Virus record (IMG/VR): IMGVR_UViG_3300046320_000024
DNA length: 20,000 bases
Strand: one strand, 5' to 3'
Source of the DNA: an uncultured virus (IMG/VR IMGVR_UViG_3300046320_000024)
Lineage: Duplodnaviria; Heunggongvirae; Uroviricota; Caudoviricetes
In this document: piece by piece, positions 583-20,000 of the stretch
How positions within the stretch are numbered: the stretch's first letter is position 1
How the letters are laid out: every line of letters begins with the position of its first letter
Notes under the pieces: model-generated
What the model was told of the DNA's origin: nothing
What the model saw: the letters and a program-made list of their open reading frames with translations, nothing else
The model's database searches: none
Translations under genes and position numbers: made by a program

Positions 583-1239
583 ATGAAATTATCTAAAGAG
601 ACAGTTGCCCTAATTAAGAACTTTGCTGGTATCAATAGCAACCTTCTTTTGAAAGCTGGTAATCAGTTGTCCACAATCTCTGCACAAAAGAACGTCATGG
701 CAGACGCTACTGTGACTGAGACATTCCCTGACTTTGGTATCTACGACTTGAATGAGTTCTTGGGTGCTATGTCTTTGTTTGAAGATCCAGAGTTGACCTT
801 TAGCGACAAGTTCGTTAAAATCGAACAAGGTGGTTCAAGCATCAAGTATTTCGCTGCAGATGCTAGCGTGTTGACTGCTCCACAAAAAGCTATCACATTC
901 CCATCCCATGAGATTGAGTTTACTGCAACTGCTGCTATGTTGAATATGATTCATCGTACTGCTTCTGTGTTGCGTGCTTCTGATGTTTCTATCATCGGTG
1001 ACGGTTCCACAATGAGCGTTGTTGTTGGTGATAAGAAGAATACCACTGGTAACTCTTATAGCGCAAATGTTGGCACTACTGACAAGTCTTTCCGTGTGAA
1101 CTTGAAAGTAGAAAACTTGAAGATGATTCCTAACGACTATACTGTTAGCATCTCAAGCAAGAAAATCTCTCGATTCAAAGCTGCAGGTGACTTGGTTTAT
1201 TACGTAGCTGTTGAAGCAGATTCTTCATTTGAATTCTAA
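583..1239 (+). CDS. gp45: DNA polymerase sliding clamp
   Basis: MKLSKETVALIKNFAGINSNLL, FGIYDLNEFL and YYVAVE match T4 gp45; 218 aa; GGAG SD; upstream of clamp loader genes. Confidence 0.96.
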   Translation: MKLSKETVALIKNFAGINSNLLLKAGNQLSTISAQKNVMADATVTETFPDFGIYDLNEFLGAMSLFEDPELTFSDKFVKIEQGGSSIKYFAADASVLTAPQKAITFPSHEIEFTATAAMLNMIHRTASVLRASDVSIIGDGSTMSVVVGDKKNTTGNSYSANVGTTDKSFRVNLKVENLKMIPNDYTVSISSKKISRFKAAGDLVYYVAVEADSSFEF

Positions 1240-4234: not shown

Positions 4235-4624
4235 ATGAGCCCATTTGATTATGTGAAAGCTATCAATGAAACCAAAGTTGATTTACTATCAGGAGATCCA
4301 GAAGCAGTTAAAGATTATAACAAGGTAAAGTTCATTGTGAACCGAGCCTTGGGATATTTCCCCGATACAGTTATGCAAGCTAATCAGATGAATCAACATT
4401 CTGATATTCCTGCAGACTGGCAATTTTCTTTTTTCCTAAATACTATTTCGAAGAAACGACGTTTCAGTAAATGGGCAAAAGCCGACGCTGAATCCGCTTC
4501 TTTAGAACTCGTAAAAGAGTACTATGGGTATTCAAGCGAAAGGGCGAAAGAGGCACTCAGTGTCCTTTCCGATGAACACTTGATTATGATAAAAGAAAAA
4601 TTATTCAAAGGTGGAAAATCATGA
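4235..4624 (+). CDS. gp62: clamp loader small subunit
   Basis: MSPFDYVKAIN, FIVNRAL, KKRRFSKW and VKEYYGYS match gp62; directly before regA; start placed at ATG 4235 (track start 4214). Confidence 0.92.
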   Translation: MSPFDYVKAINETKVDLLSGDPEAVKDYNKVKFIVNRALGYFPDTVMQANQMNQHSDIPADWQFSFFLNTISKKRRFSKWAKADAESASLELVKEYYGYSSERAKEALSVLSDEHLIMIKEKLFKGGKS

Positions 4625-5040
4625 CTGTTGAAGTGATTTATTACGACTGGACTCCTGAGTCCATGCTCGAGGTGACGTTGCCAGAACCAGATGCATTTCT
4701 AAAGGTTCGTGAAACTCTAACCCGTATCGGGATTGCCTCAAGAAAAGAACAAAAGCTATATCAATCTTGCCATATTTTACATAAACAAGGTCGATACTTC
4801 ATCGTGCACTTCAAGGAATTGTTTGCACTCGATGGTAAAGAATCGAATATTACCGCAGGTGATATCGAGAGACGCAATGCTATTGCTAGTTTGCTACAGG
4901 ACTGGGATCTGTTAAAGATCCTAAATACTACGCAAGCTGAACAAAAGGCTTCGCTGTCTCAAATTAAGGTGGTCTCTTACAAAGAAAAAGACCAGTGGGA
5001 ATTAGTTCCAAAATACAACATAGGAAAAAAAGCAAAATGA
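4621..5040 (+). CDS. regA: translational repressor RegA
   Basis: FLKVRETLTRIGIAS, LYQSCHILHKQGRYFIVHFKELFALDG and WELVPKYNIG are RegA signatures. Confidence 0.97.
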   Translation: MTVEVIYYDWTPESMLEVTLPEPDAFLKVRETLTRIGIASRKEQKLYQSCHILHKQGRYFIVHFKELFALDGKESNITAGDIERRNAIASLLQDWDLLKILNTTQAEQKASLSQIKVVSYKEKDQWELVPKYNIGKKAK

Positions 5041-5204
5041 TTAAACTTGAATTGACTGTAGATGAAGTAAACGTTATTCTTCGTTCTTTGGGTAAGCACC
5101 CGTTTGATGAGATCGCCCAATTGATCGTTAAGATCAAACAACAAGGTGATCCACAAGCTGTTGCTGCATCCGCAGAAGCTACTGCTGAAACACCAGCAGC
5201 CTAA
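5037..5204 (+). CDS. small hypothetical protein
   Basis: ATGA overlap with the regA stop; MIKLELTVDEVNVILRSLGKHPFDEIAQLIVKIKQQ, 55 aa. Confidence 0.7.
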   Translation: MIKLELTVDEVNVILRSLGKHPFDEIAQLIVKIKQQGDPQAVAASAEATAETPAA

Positions 5205-5209
5205 CCAAA

Positions 5210-5355
5210 CCCACCTTAGGGCTGTTGTCGTCTACGGTATAGGCGTCCGTGCAATTGAACTGACATACGTAATTGTCGCCAGATAAAGTAACTGGCACTG
5301 TCTTGCCTTCGGGGAGACACTTTTATCACTAACTCGCTTAATAGGAGAAACTCGA
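5210..5355 (+). ncRNA. structured leader upstream of hsp20 ending in a ROSE-like SD-sequestering hairpin
   Basis: Consecutive stems 5229-5245, 5251-5276, 5278-5296 and 5299-5319 (CUUCGG loop), then CUCGCU-UAAU-AGGAG at 5333-5347. Confidence 0.55.
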
Positions 5356-5838
5356 ATGCCAAAACCATTCACACCATCATTTTTTAGTCAAGACACTTTC
5401 AAGGACTTCGATAAGTTCTTCGTAGGTTTCGATGAACAGTTCGAGAAAATGCAAGCATTGCATGACGACTTGACAAAGAACATCCCAAACTACCCACCAT
5501 TTAACGTTCGCAAGAATGGCAATACCTACACAATCGAAATTGCTGTGGCAGGTTTCGCACAAAACGAAATCGACGTCACCATCGATGGCGGTAAGCTAAT
5601 CGTTAAGGGTAATGTAGAGTCTAAAGAAGCTGAAGATAACTTCTTGTTCAAAGGTATTTCCAACCGTGCATTTACACGTGCTTGGGCTATTGGTGATCAG
5701 TATGAAGTTAAAGATGCTGAAATTTTCAACGGTATGTTGAAAATCGCTCTCGATAAATTAGTACCAGAAGTTCCAAAGGCTAAGAAGGTTCCAGTTAAAA
5801 CTGGTTCTGGAAAACAGTTCCTACAGGAAGGTGAATAA
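5356..5838 (+). CDS. hsp20: small heat shock protein (Hsp20/IbpA family)
   Basis: FVGFD, NYPPFNV, IEIAVAGF, FLFKGISNRAFTR and AEIFNGMLKI match the IbpA-type alpha-crystallin domain. Confidence 0.95.
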   Translation: MPKPFTPSFFSQDTFKDFDKFFVGFDEQFEKMQALHDDLTKNIPNYPPFNVRKNGNTYTIEIAVAGFAQNEIDVTIDGGKLIVKGNVESKEAEDNFLFKGISNRAFTRAWAIGDQYEVKDAEIFNGMLKIALDKLVPEVPKAKKVPVKTGSGKQFLQEGE

Positions 5839-5996
5839 TGTTAGAAGTACTAAAACAATTTTTCGTTTATGTATTTCGTGACCGTTCCCAAACTCTGGAA
5901 CAATACATTCTTTCTCAAAATCCACAAAACCAAATGCATGTCGAACAACTTGAGCGACAGTATTATGCTAGAGTGGCAAGAAATCGAATGATCTAA
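5838..5996 (+). CDS. small protein, possibly DUF3563-like
   Basis: Manual translation MLEVLKQFFVYVFRDRSQTLEQYILSQNPQNQMHVEQLERQYYARVARNRMI* (52 aa, below the track cutoff); TAATG overlap with hsp20; family call from loose resemblance only. Confidence 0.6.
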   Translation: MLEVLKQFFVYVFRDRSQTLEQYILSQNPQNQMHVEQLERQYYARVARNRMI

Positions 5997-5999
5997 TCA

Positions 6000-6017
6000 A
6001 TGGGGCGTAAGCCCCAT
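6000..6017 (+). terminator. GC-rich hairpin, probable terminator or stability hairpin
   Basis: ATGGGGC-GTAA-GCCCCAT perfect 7 bp stem with GNRA loop immediately after a stop; weak U-tract. Confidence 0.55.
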
Positions 6018-6025
6018 ATTCAATT

Positions 6026-6586
6026 ATGATCCCAAGAAAATTAACCCAATTAGATCGAGATGCTATAGTAGCACATTTAACTTCTCTTGAAGGAGAAGAC
6101 CGTCGCTTACGTTTCGGTGCCATGGTTTCTGATAACTTCATCGAGCACTACGTACATTCTTCTTTCAACGACCAGTCAAAATGGTTTGGGTGCGAAGACG
6201 CTGAAGGTAATATTATTGCAGCTTGTCATGCGGCAGTTGTGAAAGATGACGCTGAACTTGGTTGTTCTGTCAATAAAGAATATCGTGGTCATGGATTAGC
6301 GCAAGATATGTTTGATCGTGCCGTGACTTGGTTACGCACACAAGGTATTAAAGAAGTATTCATGCACTGTCTTACTGAGAACCAAGTCATGAGACATATC
6401 GCTCGAAAGAATGATATGACAATCGTTAGTGAGTATGGTGAGTCAGATGCTATTGTTGGTATTCAACCAGCAACTACAGCGACTGTGATGAAAGATGCTT
6501 ATTTAGATAGAATTGCGTTTTATGATATGTTAATAAAAACAAATTATAATGCGTTCGACTTCTACTGGAGACGCAACAATACCTAA
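6026..6586 (+). CDS. GNAT family N-acetyltransferase
   Basis: DRRLRFG, AELGCSVNKEYRGHGLA (acetyl-CoA motif A), HCLTENQVMRHIARK. Confidence 0.88.
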   Translation: MIPRKLTQLDRDAIVAHLTSLEGEDRRLRFGAMVSDNFIEHYVHSSFNDQSKWFGCEDAEGNIIAACHAAVVKDDAELGCSVNKEYRGHGLAQDMFDRAVTWLRTQGIKEVFMHCLTENQVMRHIARKNDMTIVSEYGESDAIVGIQPATTATVMKDAYLDRIAFYDMLIKTNYNAFDFYWRRNNT

Positions 6587-10691: not shown

Positions 10692-13177
10692 TGGAATTTT
10701 ATACATCAGCCCACGCATTTGGAGACAAGATCCTTGTGCGTGGTTACGAGAATGGACGACCATACAAACGTAAGATCGACTTCTCCCCAACTCTCTATGT
10801 CCCAGCAAAGAAACCCTCCAAGTGGCAAACACTGGAGGGTACGTTCGTTGATGAAGTCCAGCCTGGATCCATCAGAGAGACTCGTGACTTCATCAAACGT
10901 TACGAAGGCATCGAAGGGTTTCCAGTCTATGGACAGACCAACTACGCCTATCAATATCTCAGCGACACTTACGATACCCTTGTTAACTGGGACATGGATC
11001 TATTCAAGATCTTTACCATCGACATTGAGACCAAGACTGAGTCTGGATTCCCAGATATCAAAACTGCCAATGAAGAAGTGACGTTGATCACGATTAAAGA
11101 TCTATTCACTAAGCGTATCATCACATTCGGTGTTGGTGCGTTCGTTCACAATCGTGACGATCTGGTTTACATCAACTGTGCAACAGAACAACAACTCCTT
11201 AAAGAGTTTATGATTTTCTGGCAGAATAATTATCCAGATGCTGTTACAGGATGGAACACTGACTTTTTCGACGTGCCTTATTTGGTTCGTCGTATCACTC
11301 GAGAACTTGGTGACTCTTTCGCTAACAAGATCAGCCCATGGGGTTATGTTAACGAGCGTAAGACTTTCATCAAAGGTAATGAAGAGATTCACTACGACAT
11401 CGTAGGTATTGCTCAGCTAGACTACCTAGAACTGTACAAGAAGTATACTTACCAAAAGCAAGAGTCTTATCGTCTTGATTACATTGCTGAACAAGAACTC
11501 GGCGACCGAAAGAAAGAAAATCCAGGCGATTCATTCAAAGACTTCTACACAAACCATTGGCAACAATTCGTTGAATATAACATTCATGACGTAGAGTTGG
11601 TTGACCGAATGGACGACAAGATGCGTCTGCTTGAACTGCATCTAACGATGGCGTATCAAGCCAAGATCAATATGGAAGACGTTTACTCGCAGGTTCGTAT
11701 GTGGGACTCTATCATCTATAACCATCTTCGTGCCAAGGGTATCGTGATTCCAGCGAAGGCGTTCTCTGGTAAAGATGCGCAGTTCGAAGGTGCGTTCGTC
11801 AAGGATCCGCTGATTGGTCTTCACAAGTGGGTTGCTTCATTTGACTTGAACTCACTGTACCCTCACTTGATTATGCAATACAACATCTCACCAGAGACTT
11901 TGACTTCAGAGAAACTCCCAGTGTCTGTTGATAAGCTGCTCACCAAAGAAGCCGATACTAGCTACGCACACAAGCGAGATCTAACTGTAACTGCCAACGG
12001 CTGGTGCTATCGTAAAGACATCAAAGGCTTCATGCCCGAGTTGATGGAGAAGATGTACAAAGATCGTTCCAAGTTTAAGAAGCAGATGCTTGGAGTTGAA
12101 CAAGAGTATCAGAACGACAAGACAAAGGTTCATCTCCTGAAAGAGATTAGCCGACTGAACAACTTGCAGATGGCAATGAAGATTGCCCTAAACTCTGCTT
12201 ACGGTGCGATGGGTAATCAGTATTTCCGATACTTCGATATCCGTATGGCTGAAGGTATTACCACATCTGGTCAGTTGTCCATTCGTTGGATGGCTAACAA
12301 GATCAATGCTTACATGAACAAGGTCATGAAGACCGAAGGTAAAGATTACATCGTTGCCATCGACACTGACTCAATCTACCTGACTCTCGAGAATCTGGTT
12401 GAACATACTTGCTCTGGTAAGACTACCGAACAAAAGATCAAGTACATGGACAAAGTCTGTGAAGAGATTTTCCAACCGTTCATTGATACTGGTTATCAGG
12501 AATTGGCTCAGTACATGAATGCATATTCTCAGAAGATGGTTATGAAGCGAGAAGTTCTTGCCGACAAAGCTATCTGGACTGCGAAGAAGCGATACATTAT
12601 GAACGTCCATAACTCCGAAGGTGTGCAGTTTGCTAAGCCGAAGGTTAAGGTCATGGGTCTTGAGATGGTTAAGTCTTCAACCCCAGCCGTCATTCGTGAT
12701 AAGCTGAAAGACTCTATTGATGTTATCCTACTGGGTGATGAGAAAGAACTGCATAAGTATGTGACTGAGTTCAAGAAAGAATTCGATCAGATGCCTCTGG
12801 CTGATGTAGCATTCCCTCGTGGTGTTAACGGTATGAAACAGTACGCTGGTTCTCCGATCTATTCTAAGGGTACTCCAATTCATGTTCGTGGTGCCCTGCT
12901 TTACAATCACTACATCAAGAAGCATGGTATCGATAAGAAGTACGCTGCGATTCGAGATGGTGATAAGATTAAGTTTGTGTATGTTCGTACACCCAACCCA
13001 CTACAGGAAGACGTGATTGCGTTTAGCCAAGAACTACCAAAGGAGTTTGGATTGCATACATATATTGACTATGACAAACAATTTGAAAAGGTATTCTTGG
13101 ATGCGCTACAAATTGTAATACAGCCATTGGGTTGGAAGACGCAAGAACAAAGTTCACTAGAGGACTTTTTCGGGTGA
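10691..13177 (+). CDS. gp43: family B DNA polymerase
   Basis: DIET exonuclease motif, SFDLNSLYPHL, KIALNSAYG, IDTDS and KKRY; C-terminal QSSLEDFF; start ATG 10691 (TAATG overlap). Confidence 0.98.
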   Translation: MEFYTSAHAFGDKILVRGYENGRPYKRKIDFSPTLYVPAKKPSKWQTLEGTFVDEVQPGSIRETRDFIKRYEGIEGFPVYGQTNYAYQYLSDTYDTLVNWDMDLFKIFTIDIETKTESGFPDIKTANEEVTLITIKDLFTKRIITFGVGAFVHNRDDLVYINCATEQQLLKEFMIFWQNNYPDAVTGWNTDFFDVPYLVRRITRELGDSFANKISPWGYVNERKTFIKGNEEIHYDIVGIAQLDYLELYKKYTYQKQESYRLDYIAEQELGDRKKENPGDSFKDFYTNHWQQFVEYNIHDVELVDRMDDKMRLLELHLTMAYQAKINMEDVYSQVRMWDSIIYNHLRAKGIVIPAKAFSGKDAQFEGAFVKDPLIGLHKWVASFDLNSLYPHLIMQYNISPETLTSEKLPVSVDKLLTKEADTSYAHKRDLTVTANGWCYRKDIKGFMPELMEKMYKDRSKFKKQMLGVEQEYQNDKTKVHLLKEISRLNNLQMAMKIALNSAYGAMGNQYFRYFDIRMAEGITTSGQLSIRWMANKINAYMNKVMKTEGKDYIVAIDTDSIYLTLENLVEHTCSGKTTEQKIKYMDKVCEEIFQPFIDTGYQELAQYMNAYSQKMVMKREVLADKAIWTAKKRYIMNVHNSEGVQFAKPKVKVMGLEMVKSSTPAVIRDKLKDSIDVILLGDEKELHKYVTEFKKEFDQMPLADVAFPRGVNGMKQYAGSPIYSKGTPIHVRGALLYNHYIKKHGIDKKYAAIRDGDKIKFVYVRTPNPLQEDVIAFSQELPKEFGLHTYIDYDKQFEKVFLDALQIVIQPLGWKTQEQSSLEDFFG

Positions 13178-13776: not shown

Positions 13777-14313
13777 ATGAAGAACATTCGCATTATTAAA
13801 ACAGGACTCAACGTGTTAAAGATTTTGGCACAGTTAGAGAAGCATCCAGAGGACTGGGGAGTTCAAACGAGAATGGATGGAGCTAAGTCCATGCTCACTT
13901 ACGGATTCCCAGTTGTCCAAGCTGGTGTGCTGCAACTTGTAATGGGTGGTATAGAAAAGGTTGGAGACTACGTTGGAGATACAGAGATTTGTATTCCAAC
14001 TACAGCTATCACACACCACACTGAAGTTATCGGCTTTGTCAAACGACACTTTAAGAAAGTCAGTCGTTGCGGTTTTCTTTCACTCCCAGTTGGTGGTGAA
14101 GTGGGACAGCATATTGACATTGGACAATACTACCAAACCAGAGATCGCTATCATCTGTCCATCCAAGGCAGATACATATACACAGTAGGCGATGAATCTG
14201 TTACGGTAGAACCTGGAACCTTGCTATGGTTCAATAATAAATTACCCCATGGAACTAAGAATATTGGTGATGAGGTAAGAGTTACATTTGTGTTTGATGT
14301 TCCCCAGAAATAA
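13777..14313 (+). CDS. aspartyl/asparaginyl beta-hydroxylase-like 2OG-Fe(II) oxygenase
   Basis: HID (HxD), RYHLSI, WFNNKLPH and RVTFVFD match the AspH-type double-stranded beta-helix. Confidence 0.8.
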   Translation: MKNIRIIKTGLNVLKILAQLEKHPEDWGVQTRMDGAKSMLTYGFPVVQAGVLQLVMGGIEKVGDYVGDTEICIPTTAITHHTEVIGFVKRHFKKVSRCGFLSLPVGGEVGQHIDIGQYYQTRDRYHLSIQGRYIYTVGDESVTVEPGTLLWFNNKLPHGTKNIGDEVRVTFVFDVPQK

Positions 14314-14998: not shown

Positions 14999-16069
14999 AT
15001 GAGCATTCTAGATAAAATCAAGAAGAACACTACCATCAAGGACTCTGCTGTCCTTAATGTATCTAAGTTCTTCACCAAGAAGGATATGATTCCTACTTCT
15101 ATCCCAATCATCAACGTTGCCTTGTCTGGTCGTCTTGATGGCGGTCTCACTCCAGGTCTTACAATGTGGGCTGGTCCATCGAAACACTTTAAGACTGCAT
15201 TCAGTTTGCTGATGGCTAAGTCTTACCTTGACAAATACCCAGACGCTGCCTTGTTGTTCTATGACTCTGAATTCGGTACTCCACAGTCTTACTTTGATTC
15301 CTTTGGTATTGATACTAATCGTGTTCTGCATACACCTATCACTGACGTAGAACAACTGAAGTTCGACATCATGCAACAGCTTCAGAACGTAGATCGTGGA
15401 GATCGTCTGATGATTGTTATTGACTCAATTGGTAACTTGGCTTCTAAGAAAGAAGTTGATGATGCCTTGGATGGTAAGTCTGTTGCCGATATGTCTCGTG
15501 CCAAGCAGATGAAGTCTTTGTTCCGTATGGTCACACCTCACTTGTCTATCAAAGACATCCCTATGGTTGTAGTGAACCATACATATAAAGAGATCGGTTT
15601 GTATCCGAAAGATATCGTTGGTGGTGGTACTGGTTCATACTACTCTGCCGACAACATCTTTATTCTCGGTCGTCAGCAAGAAAAAGAAGGTACTGAAGTA
15701 ATCGGTTACAACTTCATTATCAACGTGGAAAAATCTCGTTATGTTAAAGAAAAATCTAAGATCCCTGTCAGTGTATCTTTCGATGGTGGTATTAGCAAGT
15801 GGTCTGGTCTACTTGATGTTGCACTCGAATCAGGACACGTTATCAAGCCTAGCAATGGTTGGTATTCGCAAGTAAACCAAGAGACTGGTGTTGTTGAAGA
15901 CAAGAAGTATCGTCTCAAGGATACTGATACCAAAGAGTTCTGGATGCCACTGTTGACTCAGAAGTCGTTCTATGATTACATCAAGAACAAATACTCTATG
16001 GGTCAGTCTGATATGATTCAGTCTGATGCATTGGACAAGACTCTAGAGGAATTAGAATTCGATGAGTGA
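14999..16069 (+). CDS. uvsX: RecA-like recombinase UvsX
   Basis: GPSKHFKT Walker A, LFYDSEFG, IDSIGNLASKKE, DMSRAK and VGGGTG. Confidence 0.97.
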   Translation: MSILDKIKKNTTIKDSAVLNVSKFFTKKDMIPTSIPIINVALSGRLDGGLTPGLTMWAGPSKHFKTAFSLLMAKSYLDKYPDAALLFYDSEFGTPQSYFDSFGIDTNRVLHTPITDVEQLKFDIMQQLQNVDRGDRLMIVIDSIGNLASKKEVDDALDGKSVADMSRAKQMKSLFRMVTPHLSIKDIPMVVVNHTYKEIGLYPKDIVGGGTGSYYSADNIFILGRQQEKEGTEVIGYNFIINVEKSRYVKEKSKIPVSVSFDGGISKWSGLLDVALESGHVIKPSNGWYSQVNQETGVVEDKKYRLKDTDTKEFWMPLLTQKSFYDYIKNKYSMGQSDMIQSDALDKTLEELEFDE

Positions 16070-16394
16070 TCATCTAGCGAAACCACCATTCGTTGTCTTG
16101 GAAAGTCGCAGTGGCGGACAAGATCGACTGAAGTTGATAGAAGGTGATTACTCAGGTATAATCTTCTCTTACGGTGCGGTTCGCTTTGATGAACAGGGTG
16201 ACACTTGTAAAATGCACTTCGAGTATGAGGTGCATGAAGATGCGGGTGTCACTTACAACAAAGAAGAACTAGAACAATATCTTGGTGACTTACTGCAGTT
16301 CATCATTATGGACCAATTGCAGCAAAACAGTATTTCCTACACAGGCGGGGTTGATGAGATTAGAACAACAGATTCTGAGCAGACTGATTTATGA
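16062..16394 (+). CDS. hypothetical protein in the position of T4 gp40
   Basis: 110 aa acidic ORF between uvsX and gp41; the gp40 link rests on synteny and size only. Confidence 0.6.
   Translation: MSDHLAKPPFVVLESRSGGQDRLKLIEGDYSGIIFSYGAVRFDEQGDTCKMHFEYEVHEDAGVTYNKEELEQYLGDLLQFIIMDQLQQNSISYTGGVDEIRTTDSEQTDL
16134..16162 (+). promoter_or_regulatory. intragenic sigma70-type promoter upstream of gp41
   Basis: TTGATA (16134-16139), 17 bp, TATAAT (16157-16162). Confidence 0.6.
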
Positions 16395-17748
16395 TGAGAA
16401 CTACTGTCGAAAAGTAATTCCGTTTCTTAAGCATGAGTATTTTAGCGAGAGAAAAGAGTCAGTTGTAATTAGAGAGATTTCAGAATTCTTTACGAAGTAT
16501 AACAAGCCAATCACAAAAGAGATTTTGGCGATTGAAGTAAGCAACCGTACAGACCTCAACGACAAAGAACTTGGCGAGGTTGGTACATTCCTTGACACTC
16601 TAGTTGACATTCCAACCAATGATGATTGGATGTTGGTCAACACAGAGAAGTTTTGTAAAGACAAGGCGGTGTATAATGCAATCCTTACGTCAATCAGAAT
16701 CCAAGAAGGTAGGGACAAGACTTACACCACTGACTCAATCCCTTCTATCCTTTCCGATGCTCTTGCTGTATCTTTCGACAATCATGTTGGTCATGATTAC
16801 ATTGATGACGCTAATTCTCGTTATGAGTTTTATCATCGCATTGAAGAGAAAATTGCATTCGACTTGGACTTGTTCAATAAGATTACCAAAGGTGGGCTGT
16901 CAAGAAAAACTCTAAACATCGTCCTTGCTGGTACTGGTGTTGGTAAGTCTTTGTTTATGTGTCACGTTGCTGCTGGTGCTCTAAGTGCTGGTCGAAATGT
17001 TTTATACATAACAATGGAAATGGCTGAAGAACGTATCGCTGAACGTATTGATGCGAACCTCTTGAACCTAACCATGGACGAGTTGAAGGTTGTTGACAAG
17101 GATATCTACGAATCCAGACTGGCTAAGTTGGCTAAGAAGACTCAAGGTAAGTTGATCATCAAAGAATATCCAACTGCTGGTGCCCACGCTGGACACTTTA
17201 GAGCATTGCTTGAAGAGTTGAAATTGAAACGAGAGTTTACTCCCGACATCATTATGATTGACTATCTGAACATCTGCGCTTCACAGCGTATGAAGCAAGG
17301 TGGCTCTGTTAACTCTTATACATATATTAAGGCAATCGCTGAAGAGTTGCGTGGTCTTGCAGTTGAGTATAATGTTCCGATTCTATCGGCTACTCAGACT
17401 ACTCGTTCAGGTTATACTAACAGCGATCCAGGGCTGGAAGATACCTCAGAATCTTTTGGTCTACCTGCCACTGCTGACTTTATGTTTGCGTTGGTGAGTA
17501 ATGAAGAACTAGAGCAATTGAATCAGATTATCGTTAAACAACTTAAGAATCGTTACAACGATCCAGGGTTTTACAAACGATTCATCATTGGTGTTGATCG
17601 AGCAAAGATGAAACTCTACGATGTAGAAGCATCGGCTCAAGAAGGACTGGCAGATGCTGGTCACATGAAGAACGATACACCGATGTTTGATAAGAGTGAT
17701 TTTGGTCAACGTGCTAAGGCTGAGAGTTTTGACGGTTGGAAATTTTAA
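16354..17748 (+). CDS. gp41: replicative DNA helicase (DnaB-like)
   Basis: LAGTGVGKS Walker A, ITMEMAEERIAERIDAN, IDYLNI, ATQTTRSG, SESFGLPATAD and KQLKNRY; start ATG 16354. Confidence 0.97.
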   Translation: MRLEQQILSRLIYDENYCRKVIPFLKHEYFSERKESVVIREISEFFTKYNKPITKEILAIEVSNRTDLNDKELGEVGTFLDTLVDIPTNDDWMLVNTEKFCKDKAVYNAILTSIRIQEGRDKTYTTDSIPSILSDALAVSFDNHVGHDYIDDANSRYEFYHRIEEKIAFDLDLFNKITKGGLSRKTLNIVLAGTGVGKSLFMCHVAAGALSAGRNVLYITMEMAEERIAERIDANLLNLTMDELKVVDKDIYESRLAKLAKKTQGKLIIKEYPTAGAHAGHFRALLEELKLKREFTPDIIMIDYLNICASQRMKQGGSVNSYTYIKAIAEELRGLAVEYNVPILSATQTTRSGYTNSDPGLEDTSESFGLPATADFMFALVSNEELEQLNQIIVKQLKNRYNDPGFYKRFIIGVDRAKMKLYDVEASAQEGLADAGHMKNDTPMFDKSDFGQRAKAESFDGWKF

Positions 17749-17757
17749 GGAAAGTAA

Positions 17758-19086
17758 ATGACTAAAATATTAGTAGCACCAATAAAGCATGATTGTTCTC
17801 ATATGCAAGGACAATTCCCTACAGAAAAAGATTATGATCTTCTTATTGAAGAAGACATGGATGTTTATATGCCAGAAATCCCAGGTCACCCTGAGATGAC
17901 TGGAACTGAAGAAAGAATTATCTTAAAGTTCCGTAAGAACTACTTCACTAAAGAACAGCAAGACCAAGCGTATGCTGGGCTTCGTGAAGCTGCAGTAGAA
18001 ACCCAGAACCGTGGTATGGCTGCTGGTCCACGTAATGAGAAGTTGGGTAATCGTGAATGGGTCACTGAGTATGAGTCAGACATTATTGAATACTTTTCAA
18101 ATCCAGGTGCCAATCTATATGGAGACGATCCAGTAGAAGATATTCGTGATAGCCACAAGGGTAAGAAAGATACCGCTTCTACACGTAACAACGTCTGGGG
18201 TATTCAGGCGGTAAAGAAGGATAACTTTGATTTTGAAACATGGGTAGATGCTACTAAGAACTTGTCAGACGATGACAAGAAGAAAGAAGTTGATCGTGTT
18301 GTTAAGAAGTATGTCTGCTCTACTACTTACGCCAATGGTGTTATGTCTGGTATCGCTGGTTGGTTCGATCGTTACCCACGCATCCCTTATGGTCGTGCAA
18401 CATCGTACACTCAACGTGAACCTGAAAAGTTTGCCATGGCGTTTCCATTCCTTCAATCTCTTGCCAAGGGTTTCAAGGACTTGTTGCCAAAACGATTCAC
18501 TGCACAAATGGAAGCTGCAAGTAAAGTTGATAGTGGCTTTTTAGTTCCAGGGACTCCATTCACTACTGTTACAGTAAACAAGACATTCCGCACAGCATGT
18601 CACTTTGACGCTGGTGATTTGACATCTGGTTTGAGTAACTTGCTTGTATTGTCCAACAATGGTAACTACTCTGGTTGTTATCTTGTGGCTCCTGAGTATC
18701 GTGTTGCAGTGAACGTGCGTCCAGGCGATCTCTTGTTGATTAATAATCACGAAGTTATGCACGGTAATACTGAAATCAAATTGCTTGATGAAGAAGCAGA
18801 ACGTGTTTCACTTGTTTGCTATTTCCGTGAGAAGATGCTTGAGCTTGGTTCTAAGCAATATGAAGACTGCCGATATGAGTATGTTGAGTCTCGTCGTTTG
18901 GACAAAGAACATCCAGGCCATAAGAATGAAGATGGCTCTGCCCGTCACTTGTGGAATGGTGTGAGCCAAGGTATGTGGGAAGATCAAGAATGGTACGACT
19001 ACTGCGAGCGTAAACTTGGTGCTGATGAACTTCAGAAGTATCACCCATTGTCTGTAAAATCTAATTCACTTGAAGGCTTTTTCTAA
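17758..19086 (+). CDS. TET/JBP-family 2OG-Fe(II) dioxygenase (putative 5-methylpyrimidine oxygenase)
   Basis: FTTVTVNKTFRTACHFDAGD (H282-x-D284), MHGNT (H335) and ERVSLVCYFRE (R349) fit the TET/JBP catalytic pattern; C-terminal SLEGFF. Confidence 0.8.
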   Translation: MTKILVAPIKHDCSHMQGQFPTEKDYDLLIEEDMDVYMPEIPGHPEMTGTEERIILKFRKNYFTKEQQDQAYAGLREAAVETQNRGMAAGPRNEKLGNREWVTEYESDIIEYFSNPGANLYGDDPVEDIRDSHKGKKDTASTRNNVWGIQAVKKDNFDFETWVDATKNLSDDDKKKEVDRVVKKYVCSTTYANGVMSGIAGWFDRYPRIPYGRATSYTQREPEKFAMAFPFLQSLAKGFKDLLPKRFTAQMEAASKVDSGFLVPGTPFTTVTVNKTFRTACHFDAGDLTSGLSNLLVLSNNGNYSGCYLVAPEYRVAVNVRPGDLLLINNHEVMHGNTEIKLLDEEAERVSLVCYFREKMLELGSKQYEDCRYEYVESRRLDKEHPGHKNEDGSARHLWNGVSQGMWEDQEWYDYCERKLGADELQKYHPLSVKSNSLEGFF

Positions 19087-19772
19087 TGTGTGCAGTTATC
19101 GGTGCTGTGATTAAAAAACCCACAGCAACCCACTTTGATATGATTAGAAGTGTATTCCACGAGTCTCGTATTCGTGGTTTACATGCGACTGGATTGTCCT
19201 ACCTCAAAGGTAGGACAATCCATACTTTTAAAGAACCTGTCCCAGCGGATGAGTTCAGAAAACTAGATGATTTAGAGGAGATGGTTGATGGTGATGGTAC
19301 TCTTTACCTTATTGGTCACTGTAGATATAGCACTAGCGATTTATTGTATAACCAGCCGATAGCAAATGCAACCACGTCAATTGTCCATAATGGTGTTATT
19401 ACTCAGCACGATCCTGCTGATTGGGAAGTCTTGCACGGATACGCATGCGAAGGTAAGAACGACACCGAACTCTTACTCCGTTCCCTCGCTGATTACAGCC
19501 CACTAGAACATTGGAAAGACGCAAGTCTTGCTGTTTGTGAGTTGCATACAGATAGAACCCTGCGAGCATATCGCAATGGCAAGCGTCCATTATACTTGAC
19601 AGTTTTGGATTCTGGGTGTATAATTACTTCTACGGCTAACGTTGCAAAACGTGCCAATTTAAACTATACAACTGTACCGCTGTCTATGAACATCTATCAT
19701 ACTATCGATGAACACTTGTCTCATCTTTTAGAGAAAGTAGACATCCAAGGTGCAGTGGATTATCAATTATGA
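19086..19772 (+). CDS. stand-alone class II glutamine amidotransferase / Ntn hydrolase
   Basis: N-terminal nucleophile MCAVIG, RGLHATG, GHCRYST, NQPI, VHNGVI and NDTE; 228 aa with no synthase domain. Confidence 0.85.
   Translation: MCAVIGAVIKKPTATHFDMIRSVFHESRIRGLHATGLSYLKGRTIHTFKEPVPADEFRKLDDLEEMVDGDGTLYLIGHCRYSTSDLLYNQPIANATTSIVHNGVITQHDPADWEVLHGYACEGKNDTELLLRSLADYSPLEHWKDASLAVCELHTDRTLRAYRNGKRPLYLTVLDSGCIITSTANVAKRANLNYTTVPLSMNIYHTIDEHLSHLLEKVDIQGAVDYQL
19596..19624 (+). promoter_or_regulatory. perfect sigma70 consensus promoter inside the amidotransferase gene
   Basis: TTGACA (19596-19601), 17 bp, TATAAT (19619-19624), about 145 nt before ORF 19769. Confidence 0.8.
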
Positions 19773-20000
19773 TTCTTGTAAACTCAACAAAAGTACAACA
19801 GCTTATCGAAAGCAGTCCAGCTGGTAAGAACACCAAGTTCTTATCGGCTGCACACTCATTGTGGACTCGTTTTCATAACTACGATAAGTCTCTGCCGATG
19901 GCTTATGAAGTCAACGGTGAAGTTGTTTCTTTAATCTTTGCTACATTTAATCGGGATGGATATGCTAACCTCTACGAAATCGTCACACTCGAAGGTCAAG
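19769..20000 (+). CDS. probable GNAT acetyltransferase (5' part, truncated by window end)
   Basis: Manual translation MILVNSTKVQQLIESSPAGKNTKFLSAAHSLWTRFHNYDKSLPMAYEVNGEVVSLIFATFNRDGYANLYEIVTLEGQ; ATGA overlap; strand pattern fits the lead-in to GNAT motif A, but the motif itself lies outside the window. Confidence 0.5.
   Translation, partial: MILVNSTKVQQLIESSPAGKNTKFLSAAHSLWTRFHNYDKSLPMAYEVNGEVVSLIFATFNRDGYANLYEIVTLEGQ

Follow-up and report, generated by a model that had tools for sequence, protein, structure and literature searches.

The window, a 20,000-nt stretch of DNA from an uncultured T4-like phage, carries the replicative helicase gene gp41 at 16282..17748 (+ strand; DnaB_C and phrog_19 matches). 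The helicase stop codon TAA ends at 17748, and after a 9-nt gap an ATG at 17758 opens the first of three genes on the same strand. These encode a long T4-type TET/JBP (5mYOX) Fe/2OG dioxygenase of 442 aa (ORF1, 17758..19086), a stand-alone class II (Ntn) glutamine amidotransferase (GATase) domain of 228 aa (ORF2, 19086..19772), and the N-terminal 77 aa of a 213-aa GNAT (ORF3, 19769..20000), which runs open at the window edge. ORF1 and ORF2 overlap in TAATG, and ORF2 and ORF3 in ATGA. Coordinates and junctions agree with a preliminary description of this DNA, which had proposed the three coupled genes as a hypermodification operon. Contig L007, 99.06% identical to window positions 15942-20000, extends the operon past the edge: the full GNAT gene runs to 4469 and is followed by genes for an amino acid:DNA transferase (AADT, 4469-5488), ORF157 (5485-5958), and a P-loop kinase (5955-6560), with the junctions TAATG, ATGA, and ATGA in that order. 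The AADT and kinase were read from this 99% identical contig, beyond the window sequence itself.

We compared 80 related viral loci. gp41 lay upstream in 78 of them, and genes for GATase, GNAT, AADT, and kinase were present in 77, 71, 66, and 46, respectively. The loci without these genes had at most 38, 705, 1515, and 3990 nt of downstream DNA, and wherever 4 kb or more of downstream sequence was available (33/33 loci), all four genes occurred. The coupling is beyond chance, because the four genes recur across the 80 loci and are missed only where downstream DNA is short; the linkage of the original three genes in related phages was thereby borne out. A radical SAM gene, found in 6/80 loci, was rejected as a core member and regarded as an occasional insert.

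ORF1 matched Pfam Tet_JBP (PF12851) with an E-value of 2.6e-25 and 89 bits (cut-off 34.9). H282, D284, H335, and R349, the HxD...H iron triad and the 2OG-binding Arg, were invariant in 17 aligned homologues, so the TET/JBP motifs read earlier were confirmed. The preliminary description had considered that the oxygenase might group with small-molecule hydroxylases; a TauD-type enzyme was rejected, as that profile gave 23.3 bits, below the cut-off and over 45 residues only. The GenBank label "SNF2 DNA repair protein" on the homologues of DLP6, Cr30, and S-CBWM1 had no Pfam support. ORF1 has the DRYPRIPY motif in common with seven tested ParB-associated 5mYOX constructs in the available part of PMC13229309; the tested constructs measure about 290-335 aa, compared with 442 aa for the window TET. 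A ParB partner was found in 0/4 related records with PF02195, and two phage ParB queries gave no match in G002 or G004, although a very divergent ParB could escape them. In the accessible text of PMC13229309, clade C1 enzymes without ParB were inactive in E. coli. Phage 5mYOXs are capable of iterative oxidation. ORF1 is a putative thymine hydroxylase acting on DNA.

Gene absences were scored in the related records G001-G005, of which G002, G004, and G005 are 96-100% complete. Neither a C5-methyltransferase (0/5 records, three of which have a completeness of 90% or more) nor a ThyA/dUMP-hydroxymethylase (PF00303, 0/5) was found, and phmmer and profile searches for dUMP hydroxymethylase gave no match in G002 and G004. 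ThyX was present in 4/5 records and in 3/3 near-complete ones. Homologues of the PaMx11 flavin lyase gp47 were absent from G002, G004, and 80 window-type loci, and no PLP enzyme homologue was detected in G002 or G004. Thymine or 5mC had both been considered as the substrate. Thymine is the likely one, judging from gene content, because no C5-methyltransferase was found while AADT and kinase are present; 5mC is unlikely because the methyltransferase occurs in 0/5 related records.

ORF2 matched GATase_6 (E 1.9e-9, above cut-off); its Pfam families were GATase_6 and GATase_7, with no GATase_4. The class II motifs previously noted (Cys2, GHxRxST, HNG) correspond to C2, GHxRYST (77-83), and HNG (101-103), together with D126. 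PDB sequence searches with GATase, GNAT, and AADT alignments gave nothing useful, so fold comparison was needed. The ORF2 structure model (pLDDT 91.9) matched best the GlmS glutaminase domain and PurF (1xff, E 1.6e-11; 1ao0, E 7.6e-11); EgtC ranked 39th (E 4.3e-9) with a similar TM-score (0.65). ORF2, GlmS, and PurF share the Ntn fold, N-terminal Cys, R-Y/W loop, HNG, and Asp. GlmS and PurF channel ammonia to a synthase site, whereas ORF2 is a stand-alone domain whose proposed acceptor is a DNA base held by an HhH-glycosylase-like transferase.

We next considered the partner of the GATase. Relatives at E 1e-10 numbered 3146 among 8000 scored candidates. Thirteen longer relatives comprised seven GATase-AADT, two GATase-GNAT, and two GATase-amidoligase-like fusions and two others; five further GATase-AADT fusions among the 150 best AADT representatives brought the total to 12 fusion proteins. 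GATase-fused members fell in at least three separate parts of an AADT tree (quick method with midpoint rooting; 133/163 rows retained on domain length). The predicted GATase-AADT complex scored 0.90, against 0.00 for the best of three controls; the score mark was reached by 116/157 solved pairs and 2/215 mismatched pairs. Runs shared at least 98% of contacts with partner pLDDT of at least 89. On the GATase, the predicted interface includes loops bordering the catalytic site (residues 28-33, 81-83, and 103-104), and on the AADT it involves residues 38-46 and 279-285. At interface positions, the 12 fused AADTs were 54% identical to the L007 AADT and 35% elsewhere, whereas 51 sister-clade AADTs showed 23% and 32%, respectively, a gap matched by 0/2000 random block sets. 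Within 6 kb of window-type AADTs, GATase was found in 60/80 loci (27/27 of those with 3 kb on both sides) and a PLP enzyme in 0/80, whereas sister-clade loci had GATase in 0/80 and a PLP enzyme in 46/80; this contrast represents two clades, not many independent events. GATase accompanied AADT even where TET was absent (L270-L272). Scanning bacterial genomes gave mostly weak GlmS/PurF-level matches, with AADT in L113 alone of 77 loci, and viral scans for neighbourhoods of P0007, a natural fusion protein, and of P0002 found nothing. An amidoligase was rejected as the GATase partner here, since neither the first 80 loci nor G004 contained one; the query gave one weak 79-aa match in G002 (E 9.4e-5). 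PF12224 matched in 0/5 records, but this profile is insensitive because it misses the L112 and L265 copies. On account of the fusions, predicted complex, co-occurrence, and conserved interface residues, the GATase is most likely a glutaminase subunit of AADT, the binding itself being model-based. That the two proteins work together in some way is highly probable.

The L007 AADT matched PF18724 (ADDT; aGPT-Pplase2) with an E-value of 2.9e-20 and 73.4 bits (cut-off 26.2). It has the ExxxC motif as E241 and C245, a motif described as essential in the portion of Lee et al. available to us (2021, PMC8989533). Its model aligned with PaMx11 gp46 over 256 residues (Z 19.0, rmsd 3.5) at 12% identity in the structural alignment. 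The glycine-binding W146 and K150 of gp46 are not kept; this loss is no pointer to ammonia, because the ViI, Cr30, and Zemanar AADTs also lack both equivalents. AADTs described in the literature consulted use an amino acid or polyamine as substrate. The preliminary description had suggested inspecting the downstream genes for an amino acid:DNA transferase and a 5hmU kinase, and a kinase-like gene was indeed present downstream of the AADT: its product matched Ploopntkinase3 with an E-value of 4.4e-6 and 26.8 bits, just below the Pfam cut-off of 27, and the profile also matches M6 gp54 (E 9.8e-6) and PaMx11 gp49 (E 3.7e-6). ORF157 matched no Pfam family below an E-value of 0.05, and its Atlas scores did not exceed 0.81. 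Catalytic residues of the operon enzymes were conserved across many genomes.

The 77-aa ORF3 fragment had no Pfam match by itself. It is identical in 77/77 residues to the N-terminus of the 213-aa L007 ORF, which matched Acetyltransf_1 (E 5.7e-6, 27 bits; cut-off 20.7), in keeping with the GNAT-like N-terminus seen at the outset; its top Atlas matches were GNAT clusters with scores of 0.95-0.99. Homology to PaMx11 gp48, a GNAT that acetylates 5-aminomethyl-dU in DNA, was not detectable (E 0.58), and the phage records of the collection gave no match; no cultured phage among them has this GNAT. The GNAT is not an obligatory partner, because it is missing beside the GATase-AADT fusions in L110, L111, and L113 and in L270-L272. 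A sister variant (L276, L328) carries an amidoligase-like protein and a different GNAT, and the GNAT and the amidoligase-like gene never occurred together (0/20). By analogy, the GNAT may be a 5-aminomethyl-U N-acetyltransferase.

TET, GNAT, and AADT end in tails resembling that of the gp43 DNA polymerase. In the window, the acidic-hydrophobic TET tail (19063..19083, + strand, ending SLEGFF), a putative gp45 clamp-binding motif, can be compared with the gp43 tail SSLEDFFG (13151..13174, +); the candidate docking partner, the gp45 sliding clamp, lies at 583..1239 (+; gp45-slide_C and phrog_223). The motif was found in 79/80 complete TET ORFs, and a TET/AADT-like tail in 67/69 complete GNAT ORFs. 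In two near-complete relatives, the motif occurred in 7/278 and 6/251 ORFs, and four of these in each were gp43, TET, GNAT, and AADT. The gp43, gp33, and gp55 tails are interchangeable hydrophobic, acidic C-terminal motifs (PMC2988020). T4 alpha-glucosyltransferase, likewise a DNA-modifying enzyme, co-purifies with gp45, although in T4 the extent of modification depends mainly on factors other than the clamp link (PMC13216743); here three enzymes of one pathway have a predicted clamp tail. The tail sequences suggest that TET, AADT, and GNAT probably ride on the gp45 clamp.

Taken together, the operon (gp41, then TET, GATase, GNAT, AADT, ORF157, and kinase) is very probably devoted to thymine hypermodification. 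Post-replicative DNA hypermodification, as first proposed, was upheld, but the three window genes are not self-contained, as AADT and kinase lie past the edge. The gene set most likely turns thymine of finished viral DNA into an amino-bearing base, which is probably acetylated. In the proposed route, the phage would make ordinary thymine through ThyX, and TET would oxidize some of it in DNA to 5hmU after replication. The P-loop kinase would convert this to 5-phosphomethyl-U, and E241/C245 of AADT would expel the phosphate via an exocyclic methylene, as in M6 gp51; these steps follow characterized homologues. The bound GATase would split glutamine and pass ammonia to the AADT intermediate, giving 5-aminomethyl-dU in one step that lacks a DNA precedent, and the GNAT, again by homology, would acetylate the amine to 5-acetylaminomethyl-dU. 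TET, AADT, and GNAT would be docked on the clamp through their tails, and the likely purpose would be nuclease evasion. Addition of a glutamine-derived nitrogen had been anticipated; as AADT and kinase lie just beyond the window edge, the Ntn enzyme most likely acts through AADT and not directly on the oxidized base. Ammonia transfer from glutamine is reasonably probable, and the complete six-step route has a somewhat better than even chance. 5-Acetylaminomethyl-U, the acetylated pyrimidine suggested before, is the likely end product; it is the base of PaMx11, but here it would be made without glycine or a flavin lyase.

Other readings differ mainly in what the GATase and GNAT do. AADT might add glutamine or a gamma-glutamyl compound to 5-PmdU, after which the bound Ntn enzyme would cut the adduct amide as EgtC does and the GNAT would cap the freed amine, leaving a base larger than 5-AcNmdU. 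This agrees with characterized AADTs using amino acids or polyamines and with EgtC being among the fold matches (E 4.3e-9), and the fusions, predicted binding, and PLP-enzyme exclusion fit it equally. However, GlmS and PurF outrank EgtC, the Pfam families are GATase_6 and GATase_7 and not GATase_4, and a predicted interface over the catalytic-Cys loops would be better suited to delivery to a partner than to reaching a DNA adduct; we consider this course unlikely. Somewhat less probable still is that 5-aminomethyl-dU forms as proposed and the GNAT transfers a different acyl group or acetylates protein, so that the virion base would be 5-NmdU or another N-acyl form. The dissimilarity to gp48, the GATase-AADT modules without GNAT (L110, L111, L113, L270-L272), and the different GNAT of the sister variant point that way. 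Against it stand the presence of GNAT in 33/33 well-flanked loci, its fusion to GATase in two proteins, the tail kept in 67/69 ORFs, and the 0/20 overlap with the amidoligase-like gene, which would follow if that gene supplied an alternative cap for the amine.

The preliminary description had envisaged a route without kinase and AADT, in which TET, GATase, and GNAT alone would aminate oxidized T or 5mC, for example at a 5-formyl intermediate. In its favour, the trio is contiguous and coupled, GATase-GNAT fusions exist, and iterative oxidation would be possible for phage 5mYOXs; nevertheless, AADT and kinase are present in the L007 continuation and follow in 33/33 well-flanked loci, related records have no C5-MTase, and GATase tracks AADT even without TET (L270-L272). 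This version was abandoned as very improbable. The modification might also be confined to a few selected sites for packaging or regulation, or the oxygenase might be inactive without a further factor, so that no general restriction shield would result. Available sections of O'Toole et al. (2026, PMC13229309) report limited, sequence-specific oxidation, raise a regulatory role, and describe ParB-less C1 members as inactive in E. coli; on the other side, the catalytic residues are all retained in many genomes, and thymidine hypermodifications withstand many restriction enzymes according to the literature. Such restricted use, which concerns extent and purpose and is compatible with the proposed chemistry, appears improbable.

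The earlier view that the route was uncharacterized needs amendment, as clusters of TET, GATase, kinase, and AADT are already in print (PMC8989533, PMC13229309); the glutamine step was uncharacterized in the literature searched. As far as the sources could be consulted, mined contigs had GATase in 10.8-11.5% and GNAT in 6.5-7.5% (O'Toole et al. 2026, PMC13229309), amidotransferases and amidoligases were unexplained partners (Lee et al. 2021, PMC8989533), and neither paper stated a product or a GATase role for the clusters. In the literature searched, no role was assigned to the GATase of these clusters, though earlier accounts may discuss it, and glutamine was not shown as a nitrogen source for any DNA. 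As presented in the accessible material, metavirome 5mYOX clade C1 clusters and the window operon share TET/JBP, P-loop kinase, AADT, and GATase, and dUMP hydroxymethylase is missing from both; the window operon differs in that no ParB was found and in its clamp-like tails and position behind gp41. The PaMx11 5-AcNmdU pathway (gp49 kinase, gp46 glycine:DNA transferase, gp47 flavin lyase, gp48 GNAT) resembles it in having a kinase, a GNAT, and an AADT fold that bears the E/C catalytic pair, and it ends in the product proposed here. PaMx11 obtains 5hmU from dUMP hydroxymethylase, whereas the window operon would use TET after replication; it also has GATase in place of flavin lyase and a GNAT not detectably homologous to gp48. 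Among cultured phages, mycobacteriophage Zemanar (gp1-gp4) and Caulobacter phage Cr30 have a TET-like gene, AADT, and kinase, with no GATase or GNAT found adjoining and AADTs without the predicted interface residues; Zemanar has ParB.

A more far-reaching combination is tentative, and we lean against its holding in every part. GATase and AADT would form a two-subunit glutamine-dependent DNA amidotransferase delivering ammonia to a dsDNA base, TET, AADT, and GNAT a clamp assembly line with the clamp in ParB's activating role, and sister phages would cap the same amine with the amidoligase-like enzyme and another GNAT. If so, a class II amidotransferase would have a glycosylase-fold DNA enzyme as its synthase half, and the sister-phage caps would yield further undescribed bases. 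The clamp tails could be a reason for the inactivity of ParB-less clade C1 oxygenases in E. coli. The amidotransferases beside thymidine hypermodification genes are unexplained in the two papers, and a GATase serving as AADT glutaminase subunit is a specific proposal for them. If true, glutamine-dependent amination would be new to DNA chemistry and would shorten the path to 5-aminomethyl-U, which is useful in DNA labelling as a reactive handle; a base would also be assigned to a widespread group of uncultured phages. IMG/VR contained 384 related stretches.

The preliminary description had placed an operon of three coupled genes at 17758–20000, and the window sequence bore out these coordinates, the 9-nt gap behind the helicase gene gp41, and the TAATG and ATGA junctions. 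The proposed assignments also stood: ORF1 matched the TET/JBP oxygenases (TET; E 2.6e-25), with H282, D284, H335 and R349 invariant in 17 homologues, and ORF2 matched the class II glutamine amidotransferase domain (GATase; E 1.9e-9), with C2, GHCRYST, HNG and D126 present. ORF3, an acetyltransferase (GNAT), runs off the window edge and is hence only a fragment. A near-identical IMG/VR contig, L007, continues past this edge; it is 99.06% identical to window 15942–20000, with 1 of 442 TET residues changed and none in the GATase or the GNAT fragment. L007 encodes the full-length GNAT (213 aa), followed by an amino acid:DNA transferase (AADT; PF18724, E 2.9e-20), a 157-aa ORF with no family match (ORF157; L007:5485-5958), which is coupled to both its neighbors, and a P-loop kinase (PF18751, E 4.4e-6; score 26.8 bits, just under the cut-off of 27). 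Stops and starts overlap at every junction from GNAT to kinase. The three genes are the front part of an operon that extends beyond the window.

The window is a T4-like phage replication region (gp45, gp44, gp62, RegA, ligase, gp43, UvsX and gp41). Also present were a second GNAT outside the operon, after Hsp20 (6026–6586; Acetyltransf_3, E 3.2e-9; phrog_1249), a tryptophan-halogenase-like flavoprotein between gp45 and gp44 (1270–2748; E 5.1e-99), and an Asp/Arg-hydroxylase-like cupin downstream of gp43 (13777–14313).

An IMG/VR scan returned 384 related stretches, of which 80 were kept for counts. GATase was present in 77, GNAT in 71, AADT in 66 and kinase in 46, and downstream DNA was too short in each case of a miss. 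All four genes were found in 33/33 loci with at least 4 kb downstream, and ORF157 in 31 of these 33. Because the 80 loci are close kin (TET identity 73–100%), the counts indicate conservation, not independent origins. Variable inserts were seen within the operon: radical SAM genes after AADT in 6/80 loci (L009:6881-8392, L015, L039), which may serve an optional tailoring step or be unrelated filler; small 2OG oxygenases in L011, L037 and L018; and a 225-aa insert separating GNAT from AADT (L039:4702-5379, L037:11114-11791), which had no Pfam match and looks nuclease-like on inspection of its sequence.

Gene content, motifs, folds and linkage were observed directly, and we infer from them a route from T to 5-acetylaminomethyl-U that, taken whole, we regard as somewhat probable. 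TET would oxidize T to 5hmU in DNA, the kinase would convert this to 5-phosphomethyl-U, and AADT would form an enzyme-bound methylene, which ammonia from glutamine would turn into 5-aminomethyl-U for acetylation by GNAT. In Lee 2021 (PMC8989533), TET_JBP genes were reported with kinase and AADT, amidotransferases and amidoligases were named as partners to which no function was assigned, and the pathway leading to 5-AcNmdU in PaMx11 was defined. Oxygenase clade C1 was linked to GATases, kinases and AADTs (O'Toole 2026, PMC13229309; the preprint agrees), and Burke 2021 (PMC8256090), Wen 2024 (PMC11472151) and PMC13458397 were also considered. In a search that covered subscription literature thinly, we found no publication assigning GATase a role or describing GATase-AADT fusions. 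The operon is of a published kind; its proposed glutamine step would be new and is well supported.

In the five related virus records (three at least 90% complete), neither a C5-methyltransferase nor ThyA/dUMP hydroxymethylase was found, and ThyX occurred in four, the three near-complete ones among them. Thus, the phage most likely makes T and then oxidizes it in DNA, as Lee 2021 (PMC8989533) concluded for such contigs. ParB was not found by profile search of four related records or with ParB queries against G002 and G004. Assays of ParB-less clade C1 oxygenases in E. coli detected no activity (O'Toole 2026, PMC13229309), which counts against T oxidation. The long TET also occurs in the cultured phages DLP6 (L001), with a TET-associated glycosyltransferase, Cr30 (L002), with AADT and kinase close by, and C48C1 (L003), with a UDP-galactopyranose mutase; two of these TETs carry the GenBank label SNF2 repair protein.

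In the L007 AADT, E241 and C245 form the ExxxC motif, mutation of which inactivates M6 gp51 and ViI gp247 (Lee 2021, PMC8989533). The best structural match of its model (pLDDT 96.9) was PaMx11 gp46 (Z 19.0, rmsd 3.5, 256 aligned; runner-up Z 10.2), which again ranked top in Foldseek, but with an E of just 0.017. The kinase profile matched M6 gp54 and PaMx11 gp49 at E about 1e-5. Homologues of the PaMx11 flavin lyase and the M6/ViI PLP decarboxylases were not found in G002 or G004. Other AADT forms (P0216, P0254, P0137, P0175, P0181, P0135, P0221, P0250) included TET-AADT, AADT-kinase and low-molecular-weight phosphatase-AADT fusions and intein-bearing AADTs.

Fusions, a predicted complex, neighborhoods and interface identity point to GATase as the partner of AADT. 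Among 13 longer GATase relatives, seven were GATase-AADT, two GATase-GNAT, two GATase-amidoligase-like and two other; five more GATase-AADT fusions among the 150 best AADT representatives brought the total to 12, which fall into no fewer than three distinct regions of the AADT tree (quick method, 133/163 rows). The predicted L007 GATase-AADT complex scored 0.90 (runs 0.93, 0.90, 0.81; best control 0.00), above a mark reached by 116/157 solved and 2/215 mismatched pairs, which is rough for the alignments used here. Contacts agreed by at least 98% between runs, partner pLDDT was at least 89, and the predicted interface takes in GATase residues 28–33, 81–83 and 103–104, around the catalytic site. 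The model supports binding of GATase to AADT.

Within 6 kb, GATase accompanied 60/80 window-type AADTs (27/27 with 3 kb on both sides) and 0/80 of a sister clade sharing about 30% identity (0/33), whereas a PLP enzyme, labeled by similarity to M6 gp52 and ViI gp226, accompanied 0/80 and 46/80. At 25 predicted AADT interface positions, identity to L007 was 54% in the 12 fused AADTs, compared with 35% at their other positions; in the 51 sister-clade AADTs that remained once near-copies were removed it was 23%, compared with 32%. This gap was reached by 0/2000 random block sets. In ViI, Cr30 and Zemanar, identity at these positions was 20% (28% elsewhere). These neighborhood and interface contrasts compare two clades, a third lying outside the scan. 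L270–L272 carry GATase, AADT, kinase and hydroxymethylase, and TET and GNAT were looked for there and not found; GATase therefore follows AADT, not TET. An integrase-flanked element in an acidobacterial MAG (L113:4770-7949) carries part of a TET, a P-loop protein and a GATase-AADT fusion that is interrupted.

GlmS and PurF channel ammonia, and the GlmS glutaminase domain and PurF were the nearest folds to the GATase model (pLDDT 91.9). The trimming hydrolase EgtC ranked 39th with a similar TM-score, which leaves an EgtC-like trimming role in place of ammonia supply as a less probable reading.

The window-type GNAT (profile score >150) was found in 20/80 window-type AADT loci, none with an amidoligase-like gene (labeled from one Pfam match, P0004; the L112 and L265 copies had no Pfam match). 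The amidoligase-like gene occurred in 45/80, nearly always with a different GNAT. This sister variant (L276, L328, L112 and others; 45/80 loci) comprises TET, GATase, the amidoligase-like gene, the different GNAT, AADT (up to 75% identical to that of L007) and kinase, and would yield a different, undescribed base, perhaps with a gamma-glutamyl cap. In L265, TET, the amidoligase-like gene, GNAT, a PLP enzyme, a sister-clade AADT and kinase were found, and no GATase; this T4-like locus (L265:2-5582) has the same long TET, with PLP enzyme and sister-clade AADT replacing GATase and window-type AADT. We read these operons as two modules, a primary-amine maker (GATase, PLP enzyme or flavin lyase) and an amine capper. 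The window GNAT showed no detectable relationship to PaMx11 gp48 (E 0.58), so its substrate is suggested by context only.

The window gp43 ends in SSLEDFFG and the TET in SLEGFF. Such tails bind the sliding clamp gp45 in T4 gp43, gp33 and gp55 (PMC2988020), and T4 alpha-glucosyltransferase co-purifies with gp45 (PMC13216743). TET, GNAT and AADT of this operon end in a gp43-like tail, a putative clamp-binding motif as judged here from sequence. The tail was present in 79/80 complete TET ORFs and 67/69 GNAT ORFs, and in 0/71 GATase and 0/41 kinase ORFs; the 22 distinct AADT ends all read GL[ED]xF. A looser pattern matched 7/278 ORFs in G002 and 6/251 in G004, and in both genomes four of the matches were gp43, TET, GNAT and AADT. 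Among distinct TET ends, 0/19 beside ParB and 51/71 without ParB had the tail, with lineage as a confounder. L337, which carries ParB, a short TET, GATase, window-type GNAT, AADT and kinase and has no clamp-like tails, is a natural control for the idea that the tails bind the clamp. The TETs of DLP6 and C48C1 retain the tail.
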